In this document: positions 3,586 through 22,464 of the stretch, one piece after another | Layout: every line of letters starts with the position of its first letter | Numbering within the stretch: position 1 is the first letter of the stretch | Origin: Candidatus Latescibacterota bacterium | Lineage (GTDB): Bacteria; Latescibacterota; UBA2968; GCA-2709665 | DNA: 64,000 nt | NCBI GenBank assembly: GCA_965203805.1 | Contig: OZ241917.1 | Location: 2,944,001 to 3,008,000, forward strand | Direction: 5' to 3' | The notes under the pieces: model-generated | The model's database searches: none | Told to the model about the DNA's origin: nothing | What the model saw: only the letters and a program-made list of their open reading frames with translations | Program-made: the position numbers and the translations under genes

Positions 3586-3822
3586 CCCTGGCGCTGCTTC
3601 GCTTTGCTCAGCCGCAACCAAATACGCGCAAGTGAATGAGGGCGCTAACGACGTATTTGTCACTCCCACCATGAGGGGGAGTCGCAGAAGCCGAGCCGAT
3701 CCCTGAGCTTGTCGAAGGGCCGGCGAAGGCTGATACAGCGGGGGGATCGCACCGCCCTTTTTGTTGACTGGCAGCATGAAAAACATGAACCCATTTTGCG
3801 GAGAAGTCTTACTGTAAGACTC
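3586..3822 (+). mobile_element. Non-autonomous miniature derivative of the IS-like element at 10833-12574
   Basis: 3586-3622 matches 10831-10867 (34/37); 3792-3822 matches 12542-12572 (29/31); no transposase between the ends. Confidence 0.85.
3659..3747. repeat. REP-like element nested in the miniature element
   Basis: Homologous to 713-861; carries a single CCCTGAGCTTGTCGAAGGG unit. Confidence 0.75.
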
Positions 3823-3987
3823 CAATTGGATTGCGCCAGAAACACCCGGACAGACGATGTCGAAGTTTGGCAATTGCCCTGTTGAATATCGAATCCTGCT
3901 TTCGTAAATTCAATGACTTTTGTTTTCTTCCCTATAGCAGAATCTGCATTGGGCAAGATTCACATCACGACCACGGTTGGAGATAAA

Positions 3988-6186
3988 ATGAGTCTTGAAG
4001 CGACCGATTCTAGGAATAACAATCCGGACCAGACCTCAACTGAAACTGGCCGTGGCGCCCCGGCGGGAAAGCTGAACGTCAGCAACTTCATCTGGAGCAT
4101 TGCCGATGACGTGCTGCGGGATGTTTTCGGCAGGGGCAAATACCGGGATGTCATACTGCCCATGACGGTCATACGCCGTCTCGACTCCGTTCTGGAACCG
4201 ACGAAAGACGCGGTGCTCCAGATGAAAGCCCGGTTGGACGCGGCAGGTGTGACCAACCAGGACGCGGCGTTACGCCAGGCATCCGGCGAGGCCTTTTACA
4301 ACGCGTCACCATTCAGGCTCCGCGATCTGACCTCCCGGGCCAGGCAGCAGCAGTTAAGCGCCGACTTCGAGGCGTACCTTGACGGGTTCTCCCCCAATGT
4401 GCAGGAAGTCATCGACAGGTTCAAGTTTCGCAATCAGATCCCTGAATTGGTGGAGAACGATTTGCTCGGGTTTCTGCTTGAGAAATTCCTGGATCCGGCG
4501 ATCAACCTCAGCCCCAAACCCGTGCTGAACGCTGACGGATCCGTGCGCCTGGAACCGCTCGACAACCACGGAATGGGCACTGTGTTCGAAGAACTGATAC
4601 GGCGTTTCAACGAAGAGAATAACGAGGAAGCCGGCGAGCACTTCACGCCTCGCGACGTCGTACAACTCATGGCGCGGCTGATATTCATACCTGTTGCCGA
4701 CGAGGTCAAATCAGGCACCTACCTGGTATACGACGGCGCTTGCGGCACCGGCGGCATGTTAACCGTCGCCGAAGAGACGCTCACCCGACTTGCCGAGGAA
4801 CACGGCAAAGACGTATCGGTCCATTTGTACGGCCAGGAAATCAACCCCGAAACCTATGCCATCAGCAAGGCCGATCTTATCCTGAAGGGCGAGGGCGTCG
4901 AGGCCGACAACATGCGGTATGGCTCGACCCTATCCGCCGACGCCTTCCCCGCCAACGAATTCGACTTCATGTTGTCCAATCCTCCCTATGGCAAGAGCTG
5001 GAAAGGCGACCTGGAACGCATGGGCGGCAAGTCTGACATTCGGGACCCGCGTTTCATTGTGGACCACGGAGACGATCCGGAGCACTCGCTCATCACCCGT
5101 TCCAGCGACGGTCAGATGATGTTCCTGGCCAATATGCTGAGCAAGATGAAACAGGACACATCACTCGGAAGCCGCATTGCCGAGGTCCACAACGGAAGTT
5201 CCCTTTTCACCGGCGACGCCGGACAGGGTGAGAGCAACATCCGCCGATGGATCATTGAGAACGACTGGCTGGAAGCAATCGTCGCGCTTCCGCTCAACAT
5301 GTTCTACAACACCGGCATCGCCACATACATCTGGGTGTTGTCGAACCGCAAACCCAAGCATCGCCAGGGCAAGGTGCAACTCATAGACGCCACGCAATGG
5401 TCCAAACCGCTACGCAAAAACCTCGGCAATAAAAACTGTGAACTGTCGGACGAAGACATCCAGCGCATCTGCGATGCGTTCCTTGCCTTCGAAGAGACCG
5501 AGCAATCGAAGATATTTCCGAATGAAGCGTTCGGTTACTGGAAAGTCACCGTCGAACGTCCTTTGCGACTGAGTGTCGAGCTGACACCGGAACATCGCCA
5601 GCGCTTCCGCACAACATGCAAAGACGCGAACGAAGAACTACTCGCCGAGGTCATAGATCGCGTGGCGTCGGAACTAGGCGACGAGCCTCACGGTGACTTC
5701 AACCGGTTCCTGGAAGTCGTTGCAAAGTACGCGCCTGAGTGCGGGGTTAAACTGACAACGGGACGCAAGAAGCTGCTTCAGACCACCCTGGCATCACGCG
5801 ACGAGACCGCGGAGCCCGTTATGAAGAGGATCCATCGTTCAGGAAACGTCGAACCCGATTCAATCCACGGCCGTGTTGAAACCACCATCGACGGTAGAAA
5901 ACGCATCGTCGAGTACGAACCCGACAGCGAACTTCGCGATACCGAACAGGTGCCTTTGCTCGAAGAGGACGGTATCGAGGGCTTCCTGCGCCGTGAGGTG
6001 CTGCCTTATGCACGGGACGCCTGGTACGATCCGGCCAGCGTCAAGATCGGATACGAAATCAGCTTCACGCGCTACTTCTACAAGCCCCAACCGATGCGAA
6101 CGCTGGAAGAAATCCGGGCCGATATACTGGCTCTGGAGCGGGAAACCGAGGGACTGTTGGGAGAAATACTCGGACAGCAATGCTAA
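3988..6186 (+). CDS. hsdM: Type I restriction-modification methyltransferase subunit
   Basis: GEHFTPRDVV, YDGACGTGGM (SAM binding), SNPPYG (N6-adenine catalytic motif). Confidence 0.97.
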   Translation: MSLEATDSRNNNPDQTSTETGRGAPAGKLNVSNFIWSIADDVLRDVFGRGKYRDVILPMTVIRRLDSVLEPTKDAVLQMKARLDAAGVTNQDAALRQASGEAFYNASPFRLRDLTSRARQQQLSADFEAYLDGFSPNVQEVIDRFKFRNQIPELVENDLLGFLLEKFLDPAINLSPKPVLNADGSVRLEPLDNHGMGTVFEELIRRFNEENNEEAGEHFTPRDVVQLMARLIFIPVADEVKSGTYLVYDGACGTGGMLTVAEETLTRLAEEHGKDVSVHLYGQEINPETYAISKADLILKGEGVEADNMRYGSTLSADAFPANEFDFMLSNPPYGKSWKGDLERMGGKSDIRDPRFIVDHGDDPEHSLITRSSDGQMMFLANMLSKMKQDTSLGSRIAEVHNGSSLFTGDAGQGESNIRRWIIENDWLEAIVALPLNMFYNTGIATYIWVLSNRKPKHRQGKVQLIDATQWSKPLRKNLGNKNCELSDEDIQRICDAFLAFEETEQSKIFPNEAFGYWKVTVERPLRLSVELTPEHRQRFRTTCKDANEELLAEVIDRVASELGDEPHGDFNRFLEVVAKYAPECGVKLTTGRKKLLQTTLASRDETAEPVMKRIHRSGNVEPDSIHGRVETTIDGRKRIVEYEPDSELRDTEQVPLLEEDGIEGFLRREVLPYARDAWYDPASVKIGYEISFTRYFYKPQPMRTLEEIRADILALERETEGLLGEILGQQC

Positions 6187-6723: not shown

Positions 6724-7194
6724 ATGAATTTTCTATTATTTCGCTTATTCTCTATCATAGGATTTGTGGCTGTGGAGGTGCCCGTAGAGGCTCAGAGTCC
6801 GACTGATAAGGCCTCGATTTCCGAAAGGGCAATGGAGTCGATCACGTGGTGCCACCCCTTGACCGTGATAGAACTCGTCATCGTGATTCTTGTGTTCGTT
6901 GCAATGCCGATTTATTCGTGGTATGTGAGCAAGAACGTAAAAAGCCCAAACGACCTTCCAAAACGTAAGGGTCTCAATCTGCCCGCAGGATCCGTGAGAA
7001 GCATGATTGCGTTGTTAGTCGTCGGCTCGTTCGTGAATTTCCTGATCTTTGGGGAGTCGGTGTTGGCTACGCATTTCGATAAGATCCTCGCCGCATTCGG
7101 GACGCTAAGCGGTAGCATCATCGGCTTTTATTTTGGTAATCGTAGCGCCGAGCCCCTTCAAACGGGCGACAATTCAATTGAAAAGCCAATGTAA
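6724..7194 (+). CDS. Hypothetical membrane protein (signal-like N-terminus plus ~3 TM helices)
   Basis: GAGGT RBS; hydrophobic segments; GLNLPAGSVRSMIALL and IIGFYFG. Confidence 0.7.
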   Translation: MNFLLFRLFSIIGFVAVEVPVEAQSPTDKASISERAMESITWCHPLTVIELVIVILVFVAMPIYSWYVSKNVKSPNDLPKRKGLNLPAGSVRSMIALLVVGSFVNFLIFGESVLATHFDKILAAFGTLSGSIIGFYFGNRSAEPLQTGDNSIEKPM

Positions 7195-7307
7195 TTAAGT
7201 TTGGATCGGATTGCGTTTCCTTACGACGTAGGCCGAGAAACTCGTTGAGAACGACTGAAACGAGATACGATTACACCTGTGGCTTACCCCATCGGAGGAT
7301 GGTCGAA

Positions 7308-7790
7308 ATGAAACTGGACAGGCTCTTCAAAGACTTCAATCTACAAAAGGTGAAATTAAACCTAAAGGTAGTTCAGTTCGAAGTTTCCTTTCAACAAGCA
7401 GACAAGGATGCGGCTTGGGACCTCTATGTGGAAATGCTTACCAGAGTCGTAACTCAGGCACTTCCACGCGATGTCGGAGATGAGCTGGCGGCACTGGAAA
7501 GCGTACACTCCCTTTTTCCAGCAACGCGTGAAATCTTACGACATCACGGGCGGGCATCATTACATTTCAGTAAGGTCGCGGTTCCCGTGCTTAATCAAAT
7601 TATCCGGCCCTTCACCTCAAAGTGGCACAGGCAGAGCTTAGGCGGCGCTTTCGACCGTGAGACCGGACGTGCGGAGTTTCGAAAGGAACTAGAAAGTTTG
7701 CAGGTAGACCTACGCAGATACAACAGGATGCTTGCGGAGATTGCTAATGTGGAAGATTTGACCGACTTGGAAGAATGTAAAGGAGGATAG
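7308..7790 (+). CDS. Hypothetical alpha-helical protein adjacent to the TIR gene
   Basis: GGAGG RBS 9 nt upstream; AAWDLYVEMLTR...LNQIIRPFTSKWH; 2 nt from the next start. Confidence 0.8.
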   Translation: MKLDRLFKDFNLQKVKLNLKVVQFEVSFQQADKDAAWDLYVEMLTRVVTQALPRDVGDELAALESVHSLFPATREILRHHGRASLHFSKVAVPVLNQIIRPFTSKWHRQSLGGAFDRETGRAEFRKELESLQVDLRRYNRMLAEIANVEDLTDLEECKGG

Positions 7791-7792
7791 CA

Positions 7793-8350
7793 ATGCAGAA
7801 AGTTCCACGACACAGGGTATTTGTAAGTTTCCATCAGGAAGACGACTTCTACAAGGATCTGTTCGTACAAATGATGGAAGACGACATTGTGGACGAATCA
7901 GTTGGAGATGGTGATATAGACGATGACAATTTGGCTACCGATACAGTCCGCAGGATTATCCGTGATGGGTACATCAGAGATGCTACGGTCACGGTCGTAC
8001 TTGTCGGACCCTGCACGTGGCAGCGAAAACACGTTGACTGGGAAATAGGTTCTAGCTTGCGAGCTACCAAGCGGAATCCTAGATGTGGCCTGTTGGGGAT
8101 TCTGCTTCCGAATCATCCGAACGCAACTACTGAAAAATACAACTCTCGTTTAATACCGCCGCGTCTTGCTGACAATACTTGTGGAGAAGATCCTTACGCG
8201 CTAATCTACGATTGGACATACAAGACTTCAAGCGTTCGAAATTGGATCCATCGGGCCTTTGTTCGGAGAGATGGTACGCCACCAGACAACAGTAGGGTGC
8301 AGTTCCGATACAACAGAAGTGGATCCTGTTCGACGGGTTGGCAGAGCTAG
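7793..8350 (+). CDS. TIR-like domain protein (DUF1863/ThsB-like)
   Basis: RVFVSFH, TVTVVLVG.CTWQRKHVDWEI with the TIR catalytic Glu; AAGGAGG RBS. Confidence 0.9.
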   Translation: MQKVPRHRVFVSFHQEDDFYKDLFVQMMEDDIVDESVGDGDIDDDNLATDTVRRIIRDGYIRDATVTVVLVGPCTWQRKHVDWEIGSSLRATKRNPRCGLLGILLPNHPNATTEKYNSRLIPPRLADNTCGEDPYALIYDWTYKTSSVRNWIHRAFVRRDGTPPDNSRVQFRYNRSGSCSTGWQS

Positions 8351-8355
8351 GAGCT

Positions 8356-9660
8356 ATGACCAGCATTCCGCTTCCATACCCAGCCTACAAACCGACAGGC
8401 GTCCCGTGGCTAGGGGACTTACCGGAGCATTGGGAAATGCGCCGGGGTAAGTCCCTCCTGACCCCGGTTGATATTCGTTCCGAGACCGGGGACGAAGAGT
8501 TGTTAACAGTTTCTGCTCAGCAGGGAGTTATCCCAAGGGAATCCACCGACGTAACTATGTTTAAAGCAGAATCATACGTTGGCTACAAGCTATGTTGGCC
8601 GGGAGATCTCGTGATCAACAGTTTGTGGGCTTGGGCACACGGATTAGGCGTTTCCCAGCATTACGGCATCGTTAGTACCGCCTATGGTGTCTACCGCCCG
8701 TTGTCAAGAATACATACTCAATTTATCCATCAGTTCGTCCGCTCAATCCCATTTCAATGGGAGTTGCAAGTACGCTCAAAGGGAATATGGGTATCGCGAC
8801 TTCAATTGACCGACGAGGCATTTCTAAATGCGCCGTTCCCCGTCCCAACCGTCGCCGAACAAGCCGCCATCGTCCGCTATCTTAATCACAGTGAAGAACG
8901 AATCCAGCGCTACATAAGAGCGAAGGAGCGGTTCATCCGGCTCCTTTGGGAAGAGAAGCAGACCGTAATTCACCGCGCCGTGACCCGCGGTCTCGATCCG
9001 AACGTACCCCTCAAACCCTCAGGTGTTGAATGGCTCGGCGACATCCCGGCACATTGGCAGGTTTCCAGGGTGAAGGCTGAATTCGTCTCTTTGGACAATC
9101 GTCGCGTGCCATTGAGCGCGATCGAGCGAGGAGCAATGGAAGAGCGACGATATGACTATTATGGCGCATCTGGTGTAATTGATAAGGTTGAGGACTATAT
9201 TTTTAACGATGAAGTATTGCTAATTGCAGAAGATGGAGCAAATCTCGTTCTTCGCAATTTACCACTTGCCATCATAGCTCGCGGAAAGTTCTGGGTGAAT
9301 AACCACGCACATGTATTAAAGCCTCGACATGGCAACCTTGGCTATTTGGCGGCGGCAATGGAGAGTCTAAACTATACTCCGTGGATATCCGGGGCAGCAC
9401 AACCGAAACTCACACAAGATCGACTCTTAAACATCTCGATCGCCGTGCCACCCATAGTTGAGCAAGATCAAATCATCGCCAAGGCAGAAGAACAGACAAA
9501 CAGACTGACTTTGGCCATCACACGTGCTCGGAGACAAATCGAGTTGATGCAGGAATACCGCACGAAGTTAATTGCGGACGTGGTTACCGGCAAGCTGGAT
9601 GTGCGCGGGACGGAGGTCGATTTGCCCTTTAGATTTACTGAGACGGCACCGGCAGTATAG
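8356..9660 (+). CDS. hsdS: Type I restriction-modification specificity subunit
   Basis: Two repeats of K.SGV.WLG.IP.HW, P...EQ..I helices, C-terminal LIADVVTGKLDV. Confidence 0.96.
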   Translation: MTSIPLPYPAYKPTGVPWLGDLPEHWEMRRGKSLLTPVDIRSETGDEELLTVSAQQGVIPRESTDVTMFKAESYVGYKLCWPGDLVINSLWAWAHGLGVSQHYGIVSTAYGVYRPLSRIHTQFIHQFVRSIPFQWELQVRSKGIWVSRLQLTDEAFLNAPFPVPTVAEQAAIVRYLNHSEERIQRYIRAKERFIRLLWEEKQTVIHRAVTRGLDPNVPLKPSGVEWLGDIPAHWQVSRVKAEFVSLDNRRVPLSAIERGAMEERRYDYYGASGVIDKVEDYIFNDEVLLIAEDGANLVLRNLPLAIIARGKFWVNNHAHVLKPRHGNLGYLAAAMESLNYTPWISGAAQPKLTQDRLLNISIAVPPIVEQDQIIAKAEEQTNRLTLAITRARRQIELMQEYRTKLIADVVTGKLDVRGTEVDLPFRFTETAPAV

Positions 9661-10965
9661 TAATCCGATCGAATCTCGAAAAGTGTCACTATCTACGAAA
9701 ATGGAATGAACAATGCACCGATCTGAGGAATCTCAAGATGACGATTTTATGCGTGCCGTGAAGATCGGGGAAGAAAACGCCGAATGCCTGATGCAGATGC
9801 AGAAGTGGTGCAAGCATGTTGAAATTGAACGAACTTCGGAAGGGCTATATGCGCAATTTACAGGCCTACCTATAGCAAACCACAGCTTGGCGTGTCCGAA
9901 AGTGGAGGGTAAGGCGGAGTCTATGAATCTCCGCTGGATTTTCTCGGATTTTCTTGCAGAATACTGCGCCACCTGTCCTCATCACGCACCAAACGGGGAC
10001 ACTTCGTGGGGTAGGGAGATCATTGACAGGCGCCGGAGAGAAGCCCAAGAGCGCCAGCAAGCAAAAGAGGAGGAAGCCTCCCGAATATCCAGGCTACGCG
10101 AAGAGTTACGATCAATATCCCGTGGCATTAGTGCGGAAACAGAGCCCGAATCGCACCAAGTCCTCGGATATTTAGAAGCGATATTTTCAGAAACCGAAGA
10201 CGAACGAATCGAAGCCTTCGAAAGTTTGAAGCAATCTGCCCGCGTGGGTGCAGATCTCTTTCCGGAGGCTGCTGTCGACTTGGCCTTGACGCTTGCAGGC
10301 ACCAAGGATTTTGCCATTTTCCTGCTTCCTGTCTGTACTGAACTTGCAAAGAAGCGCTCCGATTTAGGCACAAACCTAGGTCGTATAGCAATCGACAACA
10401 TTGAGAAGGGACTATGTCCAGAATTGTCCGCTTCGGTACTTGATGCACTCGGCGACGGCATTGGGTATCCACTTAGCGAACCGTCTATTGAGAAACTGCT
10501 ACTTTCACAGGATCATGAATACCCAATCGGTGGCTGGAACGAAAGTAAACCTGAGTACCCGCATAGCACCGCAGTTATTGTACGCAGTTTTGACGCCGAT
10601 CCGTACGTGGTTCAGAGCATTGTCCGTCGCGAACTGCAGAATGAGAATCCCGCTATACGCTTCGGGTTGTGTGGAGCAGTCAGGCTTATACAAAACCAAC
10701 GCCCCGAGCTAATTCGGAACCTGCTCGATGACTTCCTTCAATCACTCGATCTTCGAGAGGTCGCACGGTCGGGCGACGGGACGCCATCGGATCAAATTAT
10801 CGGCATTCTGCAATCAGCATTTCAATATTCCCCTAGCGCGGCTTCGCTATGCTCAGCCGCAACCAAAGAGGTGGTAGTCAAGAGCAGATTGTTTTTGGGT
10901 ATGTAAAACGGCGTTCATCCCCTATGATGTTGGTACCCACCGCCATCAAGGTAAGGAGGAACGCC

Positions 10966-12528
10966 GTGAAAGACTTCGTGGACCAATATAGTGAAAAAAT
11001 CACGGGCGTGGTATCCTGTTTTGATCGGATTCTGTTCAAGGGGTATCTGCCGCTGGGATTTGGAACTGCGATGGAGCGTTTCATCAGCAATCAAGGTTTG
11101 TTGTTGAAGGATTTCAAGCGTTTTGTAACGACGCATTCCGAAACGATCAAAGCGCACGCGGAGGCGATGGCGAACAAGCGCGAGCGCCCGTTCCTCTATC
11201 TCGACCGCAACAACGTCAGGAAAGAGGATGAAGCGCGACGCATCGCCCAACGAGATGGGATCACACGCGGCCTGGTCTGTGTGTTTCGCGCCGTGGAAGG
11301 CTGTCAGAGTTTCAAGCTGGTGCCGGGGGAAGGAAGGCCTCGCCTGCGCAACGCCCAGCGGAAGTGCCTGTGTTACTACTTCTACTATATCGACCGGGAG
11401 TTCGGGTTGTTGCATGTTCGCATCCAGTCGTGGTTCCCCCTGGTGGTGCAGGTCTGTCTCAATGGCCACGAATACCTGGCGCGCAAGCTTGATAAAAACG
11501 GCATTGCCTATGACAAATCAGACAACGCGTTTCTTTGGATCGACGATGTGGCCCGGGCGCAACGGTTTGCCGATCGTTTTGTCGAGAAAAATTGGCCGCG
11601 CATTCTCTCCGCGCTTGCTGGCAGGGTCAACCCCCTGCTCAAAGACCTGCTTTCGGAAATGGACTATTACTGGGTCGTTGACCAGGCCGAGTTCGCCACC
11701 GACGTGATGTTCCAAAGCCCCCACGCCCTGAAGGTGCTGTATGAAAACCTGCTCAGACATACGGTGCTGTGCTTCTCTCCCGAGGATATCCTGACCTTCC
11801 TGGGCCTGCCTGCCGAGCATAGCCCGGCGCAGGCAGGACGCAAACTCCACGGCAACTTTCAGGGCGAAGTCCTCACGGACTTCAAGAACAAACGCCACCC
11901 CGGCGCACGGGTCAAACACCGGATGTGTGAGAACTGGATTAAAATGTACGACAAACAAGGGTGCGTACTACGCGTCGAGACAGTGATCAACCATCCAAGG
12001 CAGTTCAAGGTCCGCCGCTGGGGCATACGGCAAGGACAACGGATGATGGGCTGGTATCCCATGGCCAAAGGGGTGGCCAACCTCTACCGCTATCGGGAAA
12101 TCTCATTGACGGCCAACCAACACTATCTTCAGGCGCTGTCCGCCGCACCGAACACCGCGAAGAGCCGTCACAGCCTCACCGCACTGGCCCGACCACGCAG
12201 GCACAAGGGGCGTACCTATCGGGGCTTCAACCCTGCCGATACCAACGACCTCGCCCTCTTCACCGCCGTCTTGAAAGGCGAACACGCCCTGATGGGCTTC
12301 CGCAATCAAGACATCCGCAAACACCTCTTCAAACAACCCAGATCCCTCGACCAGCGCCGACGGCAGGCCAACGCCGTCAGCCGACTCCTCAAGCGACTAC
12401 ACGTTCGGGGCCTGATCGCTAAAATCCCTCGTTCCAGAAGATGGCGCGTCACACATTCCGGACACGTTACACTTGCTACTTCCCTGACCCTTTACGACAA
12501 CCACACAACCTCTATGCAAGCAGCGTGA
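10966..12528 (+). CDS. Putative transposase with Rep_trans-like motif and C-terminal winged HTH
   Basis: AAGGAGGA RBS + GTG; IKMYDK..VLRVET motif; C-terminal SRLLKRLHVRGLIAKIPRSRRWRVT; only long plus-strand ORF in the insertion. Confidence 0.75.
   Translation: MKDFVDQYSEKITGVVSCFDRILFKGYLPLGFGTAMERFISNQGLLLKDFKRFVTTHSETIKAHAEAMANKRERPFLYLDRNNVRKEDEARRIAQRDGITRGLVCVFRAVEGCQSFKLVPGEGRPRLRNAQRKCLCYYFYYIDREFGLLHVRIQSWFPLVVQVCLNGHEYLARKLDKNGIAYDKSDNAFLWIDDVARAQRFADRFVEKNWPRILSALAGRVNPLLKDLLSEMDYYWVVDQAEFATDVMFQSPHALKVLYENLLRHTVLCFSPEDILTFLGLPAEHSPAQAGRKLHGNFQGEVLTDFKNKRHPGARVKHRMCENWIKMYDKQGCVLRVETVINHPRQFKVRRWGIRQGQRMMGWYPMAKGVANLYRYREISLTANQHYLQALSAAPNTAKSRHSLTALARPRRHKGRTYRGFNPADTNDLALFTAVLKGEHALMGFRNQDIRKHLFKQPRSLDQRRRQANAVSRLLKRLHVRGLIAKIPRSRRWRVTHSGHVTLATSLTLYDNHTTSMQAA
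11805..11837. repeat. 33-bp palindromic insertion in frame within the transposase
   Basis: CCTGCCTGC...GCAGGCAGG 9-bp stem; encodes LPAEHSPAQAG; reverse complement is 28/33 identical to the outer element at 28569-28631. Confidence 0.75.
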
Positions 12529-13917
12529 CCAAACTTCTATGCATTTTGCGTTGAAGTCTTACTGTAAGACTCTAAGGCGGTTGATACGCACCTTGCCCGG
12601 TCAATCTCACGCGTTCGCCCGGCCGTTCAGAAAAACATCGTCAGTGTTTACGAAAGACAGTTCTTAGCTCAGAGGGATCGATGGAAAAAGAACGAAAAAG
12701 AGACTGAACGAAAAGAGGTCTCGGAATCAGAAAATGTGGCGATTCAACGCCTACTGGCTTGGGCAAAAGATGACGCACTAGAAATTGAGATTCGCCGCGA
12801 TTCGGTTCAGGCGTTGAAGTCCGCCTGCACATACGCGACTACGGCCATGCTATGCCATTTTGACTTCCTCTTAGGATATTATGCAATCGTCAGCGGTAAC
12901 GAAAAGCCACCGGATCCACCTCCGAGGATTCTGCATCCCAATCAACCACGGGACACTCAGCTTGATCAACTGCAACTATTCAGGCGCAACCAACTCTGGG
13001 GATTCTTTAAGCAAAACTTGCGTTCATGCCTGCACGAGATTTGCAAAGCAAAGCCGCTAGAGGCGTTCGATTTGGTCTGCGGCTGTTTGGAAGACTCCTC
13101 AGAACCGCTTGCGGACGATTTCAAGGCGCTCTGCGTGTCGCTTCTTGGTGAACTTGGCCGAGACTACAGGCTTCAGCCACGTGTTTTGCCTCATTTGTGG
13201 CGCGCATTGATGGACTACGAATCTGCATGGGTTCGCACCAAAGCCTTACATTCTACTGTCGAGTTGTTTTCATTGTCTTCAACCTCACCACCGGCAAACC
13301 TCGTAGACACAATGATCATCCACCTCCAAGATTCAAAGGTCGGCGTTCACCAAGCTGCCTTGCGAGTTGTGTCTACATTTCCCCGTTGGTTTGACAAGAA
13401 CCAGTCGATCGAAATTCTTAGCTGTCTCGGACGACACCTTGATGTGTACGGCGATGACAAGTACCAACTTGAAAAAATATGCACAGGAATACTGAAAATC
13501 TCTTGTCGTGATAAGCGCCTCAAGCCAGTCGCTTTGCGTATGGTTGAGTCTGTGTATCCGACAGGAGAGGAATTTGTAGATAGAGACATCGCAGAACAGC
13601 TGACTCATTTCTACAAGCCAAGCAATAGATTCGCAGATTCAGTGGCCAAGGATGTCGGTACCTATTTGGCAAGCTATGACCGAGACCGCTACAACCATTA
13701 CGGGTTTTCGGAACGTCTCCGTATGTTCAAGTGGCTGCACGAACTGCCGATAGAAACACTCCAACGTGTCGCCGATAACCTTCTTTCGTCCGCAGAAGAG
13801 ATGGCTGGGAATGATTACTGGGAATCCATGCATTTCGCAAGTCTCTTTCAACATTTGCGGATGGCTGAATACGAGCATGCCGTGTTGGATTCTGTTATAA
13901 AATCTTTACCTGAAGAA

Positions 13918-14206
13918 CACTGCTGTCCAAGAACCGTCGGATTCTCAGAGATAAGGTTCGAAATATAGCTTCAATTGGCGATTTTGGACGGGTTTGACCC
14001 GGATAATGAAAACCAGGTTGCCATCGTCTGCGCAATGCTGTCCAAGAACAAAGTGACTCATCCAGTGGCCATAATCGTGCTGTTCCCGTCTCATTAAGCC
14101 CGTGAAATAGGCACTTTTTGAAACTCACGCTACCTTGGTCGAAGCGCTGCTTCGCGGAAGTGAACCAGATGCTGTCCAAGACAGAAACCGATTTTGGACA
14201 GGTGTG
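13918..14206. mobile_element. 289-bp MITE with 9-bp target-site duplication
   Basis: CCTGAAGAA at 13909-13917 and 14207-14215; imperfect TIR CACTGCTGTCCAA / TTGGACAGGTGTG; removal restores the reading frame. Confidence 0.88.
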
Positions 14207-14340
14207 CCTGAAGAACCAAGGTTTGAGACGCTCCGTGCGGATTTATATAAGATCGCGATGATCTCTGCAGGAAATGCGTCATTACAGGCTGGTGACAAAA
14301 CGACGGCTGTAGAATTCTTCGAAAAGGGAAGGCATGGAGC

Positions 14341-15837
14341 GTGATACGGGAACCGGAATTGGATCTTAAGCATGCCGCTAATTCAGCCCGGCTTATCTAT
14401 GACATACGCGTGGTTTTGAACTCGAGTACTGAATTCAATAGGGATTGGGCTAAGGAGATCGGTTCTCTGATTGACCGTATTGACGAGATCCTGGCTAAGA
14501 CGCCAATCGCGCATGTCTCATTCGAGTGGAAAGTCATGATTGCTGGGTTTCGTGTCTTATTGGGTCAGGTAAACAGTGTGGCGATTGCCGAGGGCGGCGA
14601 AGGTGACTTGACTATCGAAAGAGAAAAACGTGATGTCCTTTTCGGCGAAATGAAACGATTGGTCACGTCAAATGCCGGCCTATTACCGATCAGCACGAAG
14701 TCATCGTGGCAATCATTGCTCAATGCAGGGACAGTTGATTCCGATAGATTACGCGAATTTCTGTCAATGGTCCCGTTATCCACGTTATATTGGCAAACGA
14801 GGGAATTTGACCTTCCAGATCGGAATGCGTTTAAAGGAACCGAAGCAAAACCGAAACCGATTGTACGGGTTGTTGTATTTCTGGATAATGCTCCGATCGC
14901 AAGCCCACAGCTCTTGCGGCCAAACATTCTATATCCGCTGAAATTTAGAGTCCATGGTGTAACTTGGCCTGTCGACGGGAAGCGCTTACGCCTTGATTTG
15001 ATGACTACACTTCCACAAGAGGAGTTCTCATTGTCCGAATACACTCTCGACGCACCATCTTGTATCAAAAATGGTGAGTACCAGGGTGAATTGGCGGGCT
15101 ATATCAAGTTCAACTCGGCGCAAAGCAGCATGTTGGATGATCTTGCATTCACAGTTCGCGGAGCATTCGATACACCTGACGGGCATCCTATCGAGGTTCC
15201 AGTTATTGGTCACAATGAGTTGCGCCTCAAAATTGTCGATGAAGTCAGTCATCCTTTGATGACGGGAAACCGACGCTTGGACAGGCACGTTGCGGAGCTT
15301 ATTTCAACTCTGATATCAGACTGTCCTGAAGTTCGAGCCGAACTACCTAGCTTGTTGGTAATGCTTCACGCTTTGACCGGCTTGTTGTCTACTTATGCAC
15401 AAGAAGCCGTTTTCAAAGGGAGAAGCGACGTTTCTGAGTCGGAATTCCAGACAAAAGTGACGGGAGATTTGCGAAGACAACTCGGACCAGACGTACAAGA
15501 ACACCCACACCAGGCGGGCGGAATCCCTGATATCAGATTTCGAGGCGTAATTGTTGAGCTAAAGGTCGAAAAAGAAAACGGGAATCGAAATCACATAGCG
15601 AAAAAATACGCGGCCCAGGCAGTTCAATACGCCAGCCCTGAGGCGCGGCAGGTAAGTATTCTCCTTGTACTGGACCTGACGGAAAAGGAAAACCCACCCG
15701 GCGACATTCGCAATGACATTATGCTTACTGATGTACCGACTCATGGGACAGTTGATAGTGCCGAAAAATTCCCGTCCAAGGCGTTTGTGTTCGTGATAAA
15801 CGGGAACATGAAGAACCCATCAAGTTACTCCGCGTAA
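14341..15837 (+). CDS. Hypothetical protein with C-terminal PD-(D/E)xK nuclease-like domain
   Basis: ESEFQ...QEH...GGIPDI....VELK...QAVQY pattern; GTG overlaps the upstream TGA. Confidence 0.75.
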   Translation: MIREPELDLKHAANSARLIYDIRVVLNSSTEFNRDWAKEIGSLIDRIDEILAKTPIAHVSFEWKVMIAGFRVLLGQVNSVAIAEGGEGDLTIEREKRDVLFGEMKRLVTSNAGLLPISTKSSWQSLLNAGTVDSDRLREFLSMVPLSTLYWQTREFDLPDRNAFKGTEAKPKPIVRVVVFLDNAPIASPQLLRPNILYPLKFRVHGVTWPVDGKRLRLDLMTTLPQEEFSLSEYTLDAPSCIKNGEYQGELAGYIKFNSAQSSMLDDLAFTVRGAFDTPDGHPIEVPVIGHNELRLKIVDEVSHPLMTGNRRLDRHVAELISTLISDCPEVRAELPSLLVMLHALTGLLSTYAQEAVFKGRSDVSESEFQTKVTGDLRRQLGPDVQEHPHQAGGIPDIRFRGVIVELKVEKENGNRNHIAKKYAAQAVQYASPEARQVSILLVLDLTEKENPPGDIRNDIMLTDVPTHGTVDSAEKFPSKAFVFVINGNMKNPSSYSA

Positions 15838-16406: not shown

Positions 16407-16595
16407 GCCACCTGCCGACCGGCGTCCGCGCGCGATTCACCTCGGATGTGCATACCGAAAAGATACTCGTAAATGAGGCGGTGGCCAATCTGTCAGAGAA
16501 GACCGATCAGCCGCACTCCTGCGCCCCGAGGAAGCCGTGATCATCGGCAGGGCGGAGATCGCCAATGGCTTCGACCTGACGCAACAGGCCGCAAA

Positions 16596-18062
16596 ATGAC
16601 AACCAATAGAAATCGAGACTACCTGCTCGACCTGATAAGAGAATTGCGCAACCTGCCTCATGAGACCGAATGGGTCGAGTTCAAGGTAAACCACCACGAA
16701 CCGAAGACCATAGGTGAGTACGTCTCCGCACTTTCCAACGCGGGAGCCCTGCATGACAAGACTCACGGATACATCCTGTGGGGCGTTGAAGATGGAACTC
16801 ACGACATTGTTGGCACAGACTTTTTTCCGGCTGTTGCGAAGAAGGGCAGCGAACCGCTGGAGACGTGGCTACTCCAGTTATTAAAACCACGCATAGACTT
16901 CCGGTTCCACGAAGTAACGATTGACGGGAAGCGGGTCGTAATTATGGAGATTGATCGTGCCTCCCGGCACCCAGTCGCCTTCGCGGGCGTCGAGTTTATC
17001 CGTATTGGCAGCACAAAGAGAAAACTCAAAGACTATCAGGAAAAGGAACGAGAACTCTGGCGCGTTTTCGACCGGGTGAGTTTCGAAGATGGCATCGCCG
17101 CCGAGCGAGTAAGTGACGGTGACGTTCTGTCAATGATCGACTACCCTGCATACTTCGATTTGCTTGAATTGCCGCTTCCCGATGGTCGTGAAGCGATCCT
17201 TTATGCATTGCAGAGTGACCGACTCATCGCCCCCGGCGAAGCGGGCGGCTTCGACATCACCAATATGGGCGCCATTTTGTTCGCCAGGAACCTTCCCGAC
17301 TTCCCGAATCTGAAGCGCAAAGCCATGCGCGTCATACAGTATCGTGGCAATGGCCGGATAGAGACATTGAGAGAGCAGGAAGGCGTTCGCGGCTATGCGG
17401 TCGGATTCAAAGGAATTATCGACTACATCATGGCGCTCGTGCCCACGAACGAAGTGATTCAACAGGCCTTGCGAAGGACGGTGCCGATGTTTCCCGACCT
17501 GGCCGTTCGAGAACTCGTTGCCAACGCGCTCATCCACCAGGACTTTCTCGTCACGGGTGCGGGACCGATGGTAGAGATCTTCGATGACCGCATTGAGATT
17601 ACGAATCCGGGCGAGCCCCTCGTGGATACGCGACGTTTTTTGGACGCATCACCCAGGTCCCGAAACGAGGCCCTGGCCTCACTGATGCGCCGGGTTCGCA
17701 TCTGCGAGGAACGGGGCAGCGGGATCGACAAGGTTGTCCTTGAAATTGAGTCATACCATCTGCCGGCGCCGCTTTTCGAGGTTCCTCCGGATTCTACTCG
17801 CGCAGTTCTCTTCGCCCACAAGACCCTGGCTGACATGGACGGAGAGGAGCGGATAAGAGCTTGTTACCTCCATGCATGCCTCAAGTACGTGATGCGAGAT
17901 TACCTTACCAATGCATCGCTTCGAGAGAGATTTGGCATCGAAGAGAATAACAAGGCTATCGCCTCTCGCCGCATTCGCGAGGCCATGGACGCTGACATGA
18001 TCAAGCCGTTTGACGAAAATGCCTCCCGAAGAATGATGAAATACGTCCCATTCTGGGCCTGA
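16596..18062 (+). CDS. AlbA_2 (Schlafen-like) + HATPase_c_4 + wHTH protein
   Basis: ETEWVEFK, SALSN, GYILWGVED; RELVANALIHQD, RIEITNPG, EERGSGIDK. Confidence 0.88.
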   Translation: MTTNRNRDYLLDLIRELRNLPHETEWVEFKVNHHEPKTIGEYVSALSNAGALHDKTHGYILWGVEDGTHDIVGTDFFPAVAKKGSEPLETWLLQLLKPRIDFRFHEVTIDGKRVVIMEIDRASRHPVAFAGVEFIRIGSTKRKLKDYQEKERELWRVFDRVSFEDGIAAERVSDGDVLSMIDYPAYFDLLELPLPDGREAILYALQSDRLIAPGEAGGFDITNMGAILFARNLPDFPNLKRKAMRVIQYRGNGRIETLREQEGVRGYAVGFKGIIDYIMALVPTNEVIQQALRRTVPMFPDLAVRELVANALIHQDFLVTGAGPMVEIFDDRIEITNPGEPLVDTRRFLDASPRSRNEALASLMRRVRICEERGSGIDKVVLEIESYHLPAPLFEVPPDSTRAVLFAHKTLADMDGEERIRACYLHACLKYVMRDYLTNASLRERFGIEENNKAIASRRIREAMDADMIKPFDENASRRMMKYVPFWA

Positions 18063-18312: not shown

Positions 18313-18406
18313 TTCCAATGATCGCCGACGCCACTCCGCTACGTCCGTGCCCCAACCTGCTGTATACGGTCTATGCAATGCGGCATTGAAGATTGGAAGA
18401 ACGGCC

Positions 18407-19468
18407 ATGATCGAATACAAGACCGGCGACATCCTCTCCGAGCAAGCCGAAGCCCTGGTCAATACCGTCAACTGCGTAGGAGCCATGGGACGTGGCATCG
18501 CACTTCAGTTCAAACGAGCCTTTCCTGACAATTTTAAGGCGTACGCAGAGAAATGTAAGCGAAAAGAAATACAACCAGGAAAGGTGTTTGTCTTCGAAAC
18601 TGACGAACTTTTCCATCCACGTTACATCATCAACTTCCCTACCAAACGGCATTGGAAAGGCAAGAGTCGAATGGAGGATATTGAATCCGGCCTCGCGTCT
18701 CTCGCAAAGGAAATCAGGTCACACCACATTCGCTCGATCGCCATTCCCCCGCTTGGCAGTGGGCTGGGTGGGCTAAACTGGCAGGAGGTACGTACGCGTT
18801 TGGTATCCGCTCTGGACGAATTCGAAGATGTCAGAATCGTGATATTTGAACCGGGAGGCGGACCGGCTGATACGCGCCCTAACCGTTCGCGCGATGTGCC
18901 CAGGATGACCGCCGGGCGAGCCGTTTTGGTCGAACTCATGGAACGCTACAGGTCAGGCCTTATGGATCCGTTCGTAACTCTGCTTGAAGTGCATAAGCTT
19001 ATGTATTTTATGCAGGTCGCGGGTGAGCCATTGAGGTTAGAATTCGCCAAAGGCCCTTACGGACCGTATGCAGAAAACCTTCGCCATGTGCTGAACGCAA
19101 TTGAGGGGCATATGGTGAGTGGATATGAAGATGGCGGCGACGCACCCGACAAGCAACTGGAACTGGTTCCGGGCGCGCTTGCGGACGCTCGAGCGTTTCT
19201 TGAGCACAAGGCCGAAACGCGCGCTCGTTTCAATAAGGTTTCGGATCTCGTCGACGGATTCGAGTCGTCGTTCGGTCTTGAACTGCTCACAACGGTTCAC
19301 TGGATCGTCAATGAAAAGAGGGAATTTGTCTTCGACGAGATCGTTAACGACATTTACGCATGGGACAAAAGAAAGAGACAATTCTCAAAGCGTCAGATCG
19401 GGATTGGTTACCAAGTTCTGTGTGAGAAGGGCTGGATTGATCACGTCGACATGCCGGAAACCCTATGA
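18407..19468 (+). CDS. darG: Macrodomain DNA ADP-ribosyl glycohydrolase (DarG antitoxin)
   Basis: GDIL..ALVNTVNCVGAMGRGIALQFK, IINFPTKRHW, IPPLGSGLGGL; DarG C-terminal KLMYFMQ..GPYGPYA. Confidence 0.9.
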   Translation: MIEYKTGDILSEQAEALVNTVNCVGAMGRGIALQFKRAFPDNFKAYAEKCKRKEIQPGKVFVFETDELFHPRYIINFPTKRHWKGKSRMEDIESGLASLAKEIRSHHIRSIAIPPLGSGLGGLNWQEVRTRLVSALDEFEDVRIVIFEPGGGPADTRPNRSRDVPRMTAGRAVLVELMERYRSGLMDPFVTLLEVHKLMYFMQVAGEPLRLEFAKGPYGPYAENLRHVLNAIEGHMVSGYEDGGDAPDKQLELVPGALADARAFLEHKAETRARFNKVSDLVDGFESSFGLELLTTVHWIVNEKREFVFDEIVNDIYAWDKRKRQFSKRQIGIGYQVLCEKGWIDHVDMPETL

Positions 19469-22464
19469 ACACCGACACCACCGAACGCGGTCTTGAAAGT
19501 CTCATCTGCAGGTCGCTGGCCGGCGACTCGAATGAGGCGAAGCGTCCAGGCGATTCGGGTGACAGGCCCGCCACCTATAGCGCGGGGTGGCTTCACGGAG
19601 ACCCGCACGACTATGACCGTGAATATTGTGTAGACCTGAACCAACTCTCGACGTTTCTGAACCTGACCCAGCCCGGCGTTGCAAAGGCTCTGAAACTGGG
19701 TCAGGACAACCCGATCCGACGGAAGTTCCTGGCTCGCATCCAGGGCGAGATCACCAGGCGCGGAACAATTGACGTGCTGCGCCGCGGGATTAAGCACGGG
19801 CGACATCAGGTCGATCTGTTCTACGGTGCGCCTTCGCCCGGCAACGAAACAGCCAGAGCTCGGTACGAGCATAACCGATTCAGCGTCACCCGCCAACTGC
19901 AATACAGCCGTGACAAGACCCGACTCGCACTCGATTTGTGCCTGTTCATCAACGGTCTGCCGGTCGCAACTTTCGAACTCAAGAACAGCCTTACAAAGCA
20001 AACGGTGGAGGACGCAATCGAGCAGTACAAACGCGACCGCAGCCCCTCCGAAAAGCTGTTTGAGTTCGGTCGGTGCCTCGTCCACTTTGCCGTTGATGAC
20101 CACGAAGTGCGTTTCTGTACCCATCTCAACGGCAAGGCATCCTGGTTTCTGCCGTTCAACAAAGGTTGGGACGACGGCGCGGGCAACCCGCCGAATCCGA
20201 ATGGTCTGAAGACGGACTACCTGTGGAAAGAGGTGTTAACGCGCGACGGGCTGACGGACACCATCGAAAACTACGTCCAGATCGTCCGGACGAAGGATGA
20301 CAAGACAGGGCGTGTGAAACGGGAACAAATATGGCCGCGTTACCACCAGCTTGACGTCGTGCGCAGGCTGCTGTCGGATATCTATGTGTCACGAGTCGGC
20401 AGGCGCTATCTGATCCAGCACTCGGCCGGCAGCGGGAAGTCGAACTCCATCGCATGGCTTGCCCACCAGTTGATCGGTCTTAAGGAGGGCGACGCCCCAT
20501 TGGTCGATTCGATCATTGTCGTTACCGATCGCAGGGTCCTGGACCGTCAGATAAGGGACACCGTAAAGCAGTTCGCGCAGGTCGCCTCCATCGTTGGACA
20601 CGCGGATCGATCCGCAGATCTCAGCGCCTTTCTGGCGTCGGGTAAGAAGATCATCATCACGACGGTCCAGAAATTCCCCTTTGTGCTCGACAAGATCGGC
20701 GATGAACACCAGGGACGCCGGTTCGCGATCATCATCGATGAAGCCCATTCGAGCCAGGGCGGCAAGATGTCCGCTGCGGTATCCATGGCGCTGGGTGACG
20801 CCGGCGGAGACGACGATGAGGACACGACCGAGGACAAGATCAATCGACTTATGGAATCCAGGCAGATGTTGCAGAATGCCAGCTACTTCGCGTTTACGGC
20901 GACCCCTAAAAACAAAACACTCGAGATTTTTGGGGATCCTGAAGACCGAGGGGAGAACGTCGGACACGTCCCCTTCCACAGCTATACGATGAAACAGGCG
21001 ATCCAGGAAAGCTTCATCCTGGATGTGCTTGCTCACTACACGCCGGTTGCCAGTTACTACCGTCTCATGAAAAGCGTGGATGACGATCCTCTCTTTGACA
21101 CCAGGAAGGCGCAAAGAAAGCTCCGGAGGTACGTGGAATCTCACGATCACGCCATACGCCATAAGGCGGAGATCATGGTCGATCACTTTCACGACCAGGT
21201 AATTGTACGGCGAAAAATCGGGGGTCAGGCGCGGGCGATGGTGGTCACCAGCGGAGTCGAACGCGCGATTCAGTACTTCCATGCCTTCCAGGACTATCTT
21301 GAGAAACGCAAAAGTCCCTATCGTGCCATTGTCGCCTTCTCCGGCGAGCATGAGTATGGCGGCCGTAAAGTCACCGAGGCGTCGCTGAATGCCTTTCCGT
21401 CCAATCAAATCGCTGACATGATTCAAGAAGACCCGTACCGGTTCCTGATCTGCGCCGAAAAATTCCAGACCGGATACGACGAGCCGCTTCTGCACACCAT
21501 GTACGTGGACAAAGTGCTTTCCGGCATCAAGGCGGTACAAACGCTTTCGCGTCTGAACCGTGCCCATCCGCGGAAGCACGACACCTTTGTGCTGGACTTC
21601 ATGAACGATGCAGAGGAAATCAAGACGTCTTTCGAGGATTATTACCGCACTACCATTCTGGCCGAAGAGACGGACCCGGATAAACTGCACGACCTCAAGG
21701 CGAGCCTGGACGGCTGCCAGGTTTATCGATTGGAGCAGGTCGAAGAACTGGTGTCGTTGTATCTCGACGGTGCAGACAGGGACAGGCTGGATCCGATCCT
21801 GGATGCATGTGTGGCGGTGTATCGGTCCGAACTGGACGAGGATGGGCAGGTCGAGTTCAAAGGAAACGCCAAGGCTTTTTCACGGACTTACGCGTTCCTG
21901 GCGCCGATCCTGCCGTATACCAGCGTTGAGTGGGAAAAGCTCTCGATCTTCCTGAATTTCCTTATTCCGAAACTCCCACCCCCTGTAGAAGAAGATCTCT
22001 CCAAAGGCATTCTTGAGGCGATTGACATGGACAGTTACCGCGTCGAGGTTCGGGCGACAATGAAGATCGCTCTCGCTGACGAAGACGCGGAAATCGATCC
22101 CGTGCCTGCAGGCGGCGGAACCGGTAAGCCCGAGCCCGAGATCGACCACCTCAGCAATATACTGAAGACATTTAACGAACTGTTCGGGAATATCCATTGG
22201 AAGGATTCGGATAAGATCAGAAAGGTCATTGCCGAGGAGTTGCCGGAGAAGGTCGCTGCGGATACAGCTTACCGGAACGCGATGGAGAATTCGGACGAGC
22301 AGAACGCGCGCATCGAGCACGACAAGGCACTCGAGAGGGCCGTGACCGCACTGTTATCCGATCATGCCGAACTTTTCAAACAGTTCAGCGACAACGAGTC
22401 GTTCCGGCGATGGCTTTCGGAGACCAACTTTCGGACCACGTACCGGCAAACAGAAAAGGTTTGA
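19465..22464 (+). CDS. hsdR: Type I restriction endonuclease subunit
   Basis: INGLPVATFELK nuclease motif, HSAGSGKS Walker A, DEAH, FTATP, FQTGYD, QTLSRLNR. Confidence 0.97.
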   Translation: MNTDTTERGLESLICRSLAGDSNEAKRPGDSGDRPATYSAGWLHGDPHDYDREYCVDLNQLSTFLNLTQPGVAKALKLGQDNPIRRKFLARIQGEITRRGTIDVLRRGIKHGRHQVDLFYGAPSPGNETARARYEHNRFSVTRQLQYSRDKTRLALDLCLFINGLPVATFELKNSLTKQTVEDAIEQYKRDRSPSEKLFEFGRCLVHFAVDDHEVRFCTHLNGKASWFLPFNKGWDDGAGNPPNPNGLKTDYLWKEVLTRDGLTDTIENYVQIVRTKDDKTGRVKREQIWPRYHQLDVVRRLLSDIYVSRVGRRYLIQHSAGSGKSNSIAWLAHQLIGLKEGDAPLVDSIIVVTDRRVLDRQIRDTVKQFAQVASIVGHADRSADLSAFLASGKKIIITTVQKFPFVLDKIGDEHQGRRFAIIIDEAHSSQGGKMSAAVSMALGDAGGDDDEDTTEDKINRLMESRQMLQNASYFAFTATPKNKTLEIFGDPEDRGENVGHVPFHSYTMKQAIQESFILDVLAHYTPVASYYRLMKSVDDDPLFDTRKAQRKLRRYVESHDHAIRHKAEIMVDHFHDQVIVRRKIGGQARAMVVTSGVERAIQYFHAFQDYLEKRKSPYRAIVAFSGEHEYGGRKVTEASLNAFPSNQIADMIQEDPYRFLICAEKFQTGYDEPLLHTMYVDKVLSGIKAVQTLSRLNRAHPRKHDTFVLDFMNDAEEIKTSFEDYYRTTILAEETDPDKLHDLKASLDGCQVYRLEQVEELVSLYLDGADRDRLDPILDACVAVYRSELDEDGQVEFKGNAKAFSRTYAFLAPILPYTSVEWEKLSIFLNFLIPKLPPPVEEDLSKGILEAIDMDSYRVEVRATMKIALADEDAEIDPVPAGGGTGKPEPEIDHLSNILKTFNELFGNIHWKDSDKIRKVIAEELPEKVAADTAYRNAMENSDEQNARIEHDKALERAVTALLSDHAELFKQFSDNESFRRWLSETNFRTTYRQTEKV

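Follow-up and report, generated by a model that had tools for sequence, protein, structure and literature searches.

A gene pair interrupted by two transposable elements in a Latescibacterota genome is probably a divergent, inactivated member of the Olokun defence family

Introduction

Olokun is the described defence system closest to the locus studied here. As characterized in a preprint, PfOlokun pairs an adaptin-like partner with a nuclease that has a helical domain at its N-terminus and a PD-(D/E)xK domain, and the two assemble into a 2:2 complex of about 278 kDa; the system degrades the DNA of T7, SECphi17 and SPO1, spares E. coli genomic DNA and nicks plasmid (bioRxiv 10.1101/2025.07.10.664194). 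The words "Olokun" and "adaptin" are absent from the text of a 2022 preprint (10.1101/2022.05.11.491447). PADLOC represents the family by two models, OloA (PDLC03925) for the partner and OloB (PDLC03926) for the nuclease. Here we analyze a stretch of 64,000 nucleotides from a Candidatus Latescibacterota bacterium (contig OZ241917.1, positions 2,944,001 to 3,008,000; hereafter the window), which contains two overlapping genes, A and B, encoding a helical-repeat protein and a predicted nuclease. Gene A is broken into three fragments by an insertion sequence (IS) and a miniature inverted-repeat transposable element (MITE). We consider that the locus probably belongs to the Olokun family as the PADLOC models define it, as a divergent representative of the long form, with validated Olokun compared by description only, and that it is inactivated in this genome.

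Results

Gene A is a single gene split by an IS and a MITE

The features of the interrupted pair are as follows, in window coordinates (aa, amino acids).

9713–10834, forward strand: oloA-like gene A, fragment 1 (codons 1–374), an open frame encoding the Cys4/His module at the N-terminus and the first part of the HEAT solenoid; 82% identity to the homologue P0001.
10836–12571, forward strand: IS with a 1736-bp core and a 559-aa open reading frame (ORF; 10849–12528), flanked by a 3-bp CTA duplication at 10833–10835 and 12572–12574; ends matched to the copies L069 and L070.
12574–13917, forward strand: oloA-like gene A, fragment 2 (codons 375–822; HEAT solenoid), an open frame of 448 aa; 79% identity to P0001, weak Adaptin_N match (0.0012).
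13918–14206, no strand assigned: MITE of 289 bp whose terminal inverted repeats are imperfect, flanked by the 9-bp target duplication CCTGAAGAA at 13909–13917 and 14207–14215.
14216–14344, forward strand: oloA-like gene A, fragment 3 (codons 823–864 and TGA), 42 aa at 14216–14341 and TGA at 14342–14344; aligns with the C-termini of homologues.
14341–15837, forward strand: oloB-like nuclease gene B, intact, 498 aa.

When the IS and the MITE are taken out, the fragments of 374, 448 and 42 aa form a single gene A of 864 codons, as the initial annotation, made from the sequence alone, had proposed. The three fragments tile the 864-position family profile (positions 1–376, 374–823 and 817–862), and both junctions align without gaps to homologues of 860–871 aa, which are contiguous at these points. 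At the IS junction, QYSP/KAVD is aligned to QYSTKAVD of a homologue, and at the MITE junction, LPEE/PRFE is aligned to LPEEPRFE. The lengths first given for the two inserts, 1739 bp for the IS with one copy of its duplication and 298 bp for the MITE with one copy of its own, were reproduced, as was the overlap between the TGA of gene A and the GTG of gene B, which starts at 14341.

Beyond the two insertions, gene A has no stops or frameshifts and every codon is otherwise intact, so the damage looks recent. The gene was struck twice in this genome, by the IS with its 3-bp duplication and by the MITE with its 9-bp duplication, while B was left intact. A search of the whole genome found neither gene in a further copy. 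With two transposons interrupting A, the window copy of the system is most likely non-functional.

Architecture of A and B

Residues Cys33, Cys61, Cys85, Cys88 and His91 of A are invariant in all 62 aligned homologues, Cys25 and His35 are nearly so, and the window copy keeps every one of these invariant and near-invariant residues. Judging from this conservation pattern, the Cys4/His module probably binds metal. Residues 1–106 of A, searched by sequence against the PDB, gave nothing meaningful. In the AlphaFold2 (AF2) model of P0002, an intact homologue of A (mean predicted local distance difference test (pLDDT) score 85.7), residues 1–95 form an alpha/beta head that contains the Cys/His residues. 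The head is followed by a long helix (residues 98–139) and then by a continuous alpha-solenoid up to residue 860, and the model is all-alpha from residue 98 onward. The best Foldseek matches of the model are CAND1, SF3B1, karyopherin-beta, AP2 beta and PP2A-A, with E-values of about 1e-6 and low TM-scores, and Pfam gave weak matches to Adaptin_N (0.0012 and 0.00054). On the basis of the model, A is a predicted HEAT/adaptin-type solenoid, in agreement with the earlier description of N-terminal Cys/His motifs followed by long helical repeats.

The AF2 model of B (pLDDT 82.8) consists of a helical domain (residues 9–143), a beta-sandwich (residues 151–298), a helical linker and a C-terminal alpha/beta core. 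Asp397, Glu406 and Lys408 are invariant in the homologue alignment and lie, in the model, in secondary structure of the order alpha, beta-beta, alpha, beta. As modeled, B begins with a helical domain, continues with an Ig-like beta-sandwich and ends in a predicted PD-(D/E)xK nuclease, and the 498 residues, beta-rich middle and C-terminal nuclease motif read from the sequence at the outset are all recovered. A structure search with the whole B model returned generic helical-bundle and Ig-like sandwich matches only and did not thereby confirm the nuclease fold, and a PDB sequence search with the B profile gave nothing meaningful.

With fragment 2 as the query and the search made among longer proteins, homologues of A fell into 79 clusters at 90% identity, nearly all of 837–873 aa, and the A family profile reached a superfamily of 763 clusters at E ≤ 1e-3. 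Homologues of B comprise 221 clusters at the same identity level, mostly of 491–507 aa. Neither A nor B has a name in Pfam or NCBIfam, and the source records call nearly all of their homologues "hypothetical". A tblastn search of B against plasmid and phage collections gave zero matches.

Matches of A and B to the Olokun models

The OloB model matched window B at 1.2e-7 over residues 286–453, a partial coverage of the profile (positions 212–456 of 556), and it matched all 59 members of the B family tested, at best with 1.6e-11. On the side of A, six close and 40 distant relatives were scanned with PADLOC. Among the distant ones, which were taken from the 763-cluster superfamily, 12 of the 37 unfused proteins matched OloA, at best with 5.9e-22, and none of the 12 matched any other PADLOC family. 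The best-scoring relative, P0328, matched the A profile at 6.6e-44, and a natural A-B fusion protein, P0075, matched both OloA (5.7e-9) and OloB (3e-7).

A search with the OloA model in 400 genomes from a different class yielded three short-form pairs (L059, L060 and L061), each of 578 + 578 aa with 290–416 bits to OloA and 603–689 bits to OloB, and one long-form pair, L062. The genes of L062, which lie beside an integrase, overlap and encode proteins of 850 and 480 aa, scoring 153.6 bits to OloA (3e-45) and 171.8 bits to OloB (7.9e-51). The 850-aa protein aligned with A in hhalign at 99.2% probability (E-value 7.6e-20) over 593 columns, which include the WC.H motif, the CP/CD site and the HC..C.H motif. 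The 480-aa protein aligned with B at 99.4% (E-value 4.2e-21), and the 347 aligned columns take in both the beta-sandwich and the D...ELK core. The window pair and all four of these pairs share the order of solenoid first and nuclease second. The initial annotation did not recognize A and B as a named system and allowed that they might match a described one. They do so: the OloB matches throughout the B family and the bridging L062 pair place A-B in Olokun as PADLOC defines the family, and the pair is an already-named system, not a new kind.

Several observations weigh against this assignment. The OloA model matched none of the three A fragments of the window, nor any of the six close full-length homologues of A even at E ≤ 1, although a direct OloA match is a practical test of detection and cannot alone decide homology. 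The same model also matches generic HEAT proteins, as seen in two control genomes and with a cyanobacterial protein of 1392 aa (2e-11), so weak OloA matches are not specific. The nuclease domain of B scores higher with another PADLOC model, LmuA of the Lamassu system (PDLC03853), than with OloB: residues 302–497 matched the C-terminal 200 positions of LmuA at 6.5e-18, and all 59 B-family members matched LmuA, at best with 1.9e-22. When A or B was compared with the three best-scoring short-form pairs, hhalign gave probabilities of at most 2.7%, from only three sequences in single or three-row alignments, and similarity between the L062 proteins and the short-form pairs was likewise absent in hhalign. 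The PADLOC Olokun models seem to span two deeply divergent types, the window clade belonging with the long type, and since no hhalign alignment reaches the short form, the link to Olokun rests on PADLOC models that appear heterogeneous.

These points would also be expected if A and B were an independent HEAT and nuclease defence family that merely resembles Olokun, with generic solenoid matches and a nuclease that is a shuffled domain shared with LmuA-type proteins. The domain is indeed modular, since it occurs on a different 576-aa body in Pelosinus. We nevertheless regard such an independent origin as unlikely, because L062 scores 153.6 and 171.8 bits over most of both proteins, compared with at most 48 bits for generic HEAT proteins, and because its homology to A and B is clear and extends to the Cys/His motifs at the N-terminus; moreover, gene order, gene overlap and domain order are the same in L062 and the window pair.

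The Pelosinus protein is encoded at positions 8846–10576 of the locus L041. It is 51% identical to residues 306–497 of B, has an unrelated N-terminal body and lies near a PDC-M36A-like gene.

A and B form one module

Species-representative genomes scanned with the B alignment yielded 25 related loci. At all 18 loci with upstream DNA, B is directly preceded by an A gene in the same orientation; in the other seven, B is at a contig edge (three loci) or there is a fragment or the nuclease domain only (four loci, including that of Pelosinus). The 4-bp stop/start overlap of A and B, GTGA in the window, recurs among the related loci. Natural A-B fusion proteins of 1394 and 1357 aa exist, and a protein of 1355 aa, which has no PADLOC match, is probably a third. 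With adjacency at every assessable locus and with fusions, the co-occurrence of the two genes, on which their proposed partnership depended, is well supported. Together with the gene overlap and the frequent defence-gene surroundings described below, it upholds the original idea of a translationally coupled, two-gene solenoid and nuclease module.

Gene A is damaged at four of the 17 related loci that could be assessed: its 5' part is lost in L025 and L037, it is frameshifted in L039, and it is in several pieces in L040. B is intact in the first three of these and frameshifted in L040. This bias of damage towards A is not significant, with five cases and with A 1.7 times as long as B. The pattern nevertheless bears on the idea of a toxin-antitoxin-like arrangement, with the solenoid A holding a toxic nuclease B in check, an idea that accords with two overlapping, co-transcribed genes, one of them encoding a predicted nuclease. 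Since B stays intact where A is destroyed, in the window and at three of the four other damaged loci, B alone is tolerated, contrary to what is expected if A were the antitoxin of a lethal B. We consider this the least probable of the explanations weighed here, with hardly any chance of being correct.

By source names, the A-B clade comes from Latescibacterota, Planctomycetota, Chloroflexota, Cyanobacteria, Gemmatimonadota, Desulfobulbales, Negativicutes and Pseudomonadota, and B was found in none of the 21 other genomes of the window's taxonomic family. The wide spread over phyla and the absence within its own family fit the pattern of accessory cargo.

Genomic context of the A-B pair

The pair lies in an island of type I restriction-modification (R-M) genes with the following main neighbours.

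3913–6186, forward strand: hsdM, type I R-M methylase (Pfam N6_Mtase 4.5e-56, HsdM_N 1.7e-23).
8338–9660, forward strand: hsdS, type I R-M specificity subunit (Pfam Methylase_S 7.6e-14).
16473–18062, forward strand: gene for an AlbA_2/HATPase_c_4 protein of 529 aa (Pfam SLFN_AlbA_2 4.6e-21, HATPase_c_4 3.2e-23).
18347–19468, forward strand: DarG-like macrodomain antitoxin gene (PADLOC DarG 7.6e-136, NCBIfam antitoxin_DarG 2.2e-136).
19465–22464, forward strand: hsdR, type I R-M restriction subunit (Pfam HSDR_N, SWI2_SNF2, ResIII and T1R_D3-like).

The island order is hsdM, a membrane-like ORF of 156 aa, an ORF of 181 aa, a ThsB-like TIR gene, hsdS, A-B, the AlbA_2/HATPase_c_4 gene, the DarG-like gene and hsdR. 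The placement of the pair between hsdS and hsdR, as first reported, holds insofar as both flank the region, but two other genes intervene between B and hsdR. Another locus from Latescibacterota, L020, shares DNA-level synteny with the window over hsdM, hsdS, A, B, DarG and hsdR, with 66–75% nucleotide identity.

This position could mean that A-B specifically serves the type I R-M system, as a PrrC-like backup effector triggered when the R-M complex is inhibited. PrrC is a precedent for a backup effector tied to type I R-M, and the pair does lie between hsdS and hsdR both in the window and in L020. However, L020 is the only one of the 25 related loci with hsd genes within 10 kb; the others carry type ISP or type IIL enzymes, transposases or housekeeping genes, and the hsd island of the window itself holds unrelated cargo (TIR, AlbA_2 and DarG). 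We therefore rejected the embedding among hsd genes as a conserved feature of A-B and regard the position as co-location in an island, not as a conserved partnership. A dedicated R-M accessory is very unlikely, and the A-B pair is cargo within the type I R-M island.

Neighbours were annotated at 12 of the related loci. R-M, toxin-antitoxin or other defence-type genes lie within about 6.5 kb of A-B at six of them (L020, L021, L026, L032, L035 and L040), transposases or relaxases are near the pair in L029, L033, L039 and L035, the last of which is also among the six, and housekeeping genes flank it at the remaining annotated loci.

Between hsdM and hsdS (6724–8350), the window encodes the 156-aa hydrophobic ORF, the 181-aa ORF, which has no family, and the ThsB-like TIR protein of 185 aa (Pfam 4.9e-16; PADLOC ThsB 7.4e-9 and PDC-M50B 1.6e-8). 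These three small genes may be a separate TIR-based defence module. Downstream of B, the window has about 630 bp of non-coding DNA and the AlbA_2/HATPase_c_4 gene where L020 has DarT-DarG. No DarT was found in the window, whether beside the DarG-like gene or elsewhere, and a DarT remnant sought between B and the DarG-like gene was not found; the same genome does encode a DarT homologue, at a distance of about 890 kb.

The two mobile elements

When the window IS was aligned with two copies from sister genomes (L069 and L070), all three shared the flanks C-CTA...CTA-A as well as the left end CCTAGCG... and the right end ...GACTCTAA. The identical flanks in the three copies indicate an IS core of 1736 bp with a 3-bp CTA duplication. 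The window copy is the only full copy in its genome, and each of the two sister genomes has at least eight near-identical copies of the 559-aa ORF, with 86–90% protein identity to that of the window. Scans of the ORF product with Pfam, NCBIfam and PADLOC gave no match, and its nearest Atlas clusters are all "hypothetical". The IS has hairpin-like ends, lacks obvious terminal inverted repeats and is inserted at C-CTA-A. Its protein may represent an unannotated transposase family.

Two elements of about 240 bp, at 3586–3825 of the window and at about 1375305–1375546 of G000:C1, have both IS ends without the ORF between them, and from their sequence they look like MITE derivatives of the IS. Elsewhere in the genome, seven matches resemble the left end of the IS and three resemble the right end. 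A segment of 39 nucleotides within the IS ORF (window 11802–11840) has 16 other genomic matches at 80–91% identity, some clustered a few hundred bases apart.

The MITE that interrupts gene A has other copies in the same 5.87-Mb genome, five of them full-length at 98–100% identity and three partial, and it has been recently active.

Discussion

By analogy with the Olokun preprint, A and B would assemble into a hetero-oligomer, the helical domain of B being held by the solenoid A, and paired nuclease domains of B would cut invading phage DNA. The suggestion in the initial annotation that the solenoid may be a sensor or scaffold activating the nuclease agrees with published descriptions of Olokun. 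A further-reaching proposal is that the long-form clade, which is missed by current hidden Markov model tools and covers at least seven phyla, is a mechanistically distinct subtype of Olokun. Its Cys4/His module (Cys33, Cys61, Cys85, Cys88 and His91), which the short form does not have, would bind a metal or a cluster and serve as a trigger-sensing head that licenses the nuclease. We offer this tentatively and give it a low probability.

The value of the assignment lies in the clade more than in the window copy, which, as a gene that is most likely dead, offers little more than one case of a defence gene decaying through transposon insertion. A widespread clade can now be recognized as divergent Olokun, and OloA, one of the two PADLOC Olokun models, misses it. 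This may be used in annotating "hypothetical" proteins and in choosing diverse Olokun representatives for work on mechanism, for example on the Cys4/His module. "Olokun" as currently modeled seems to cover two forms without detectable mutual similarity.

Comparison with known systems

LmuA of Lamassu is like B in its C-terminal region of about 200 residues only, and the rest of B is unmatched. In Lamassu, LmuA comes with LmuB, with or without LmuC. Neither partner, the SMC-like LmuB or LmuC, was matched in the PADLOC scan, which covered 10 proteins of the window.

The described architecture of PfOlokun matches the models of A and B, a likeness at the level of domain description. Short-form Olokun, like the window pair, is an operon of two overlapping genes, and PADLOC assigns it to the same pair of models as L062. 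However, short OloA is about 290 aa shorter than A and lacks the invariant four-Cys set, and the consensus of short OloB, read by eye, appears to have a G.D...S.K-like motif near the N-terminus, unlike B.

Long-form Olokun, represented by L062, differs from the window pair in that the identity is only about 24–28%, in that the PADLOC OloA model detects L062 and not the window clade, and in the interruption of the window copy by the IS and the MITE. The two agree in gene order, in the overlapping stop and start, in similar protein lengths, in the beta-sandwich and the C-terminal D...ExK core of the nuclease, and in the N-terminal WC.H...C...C..C.H motifs of the solenoid.

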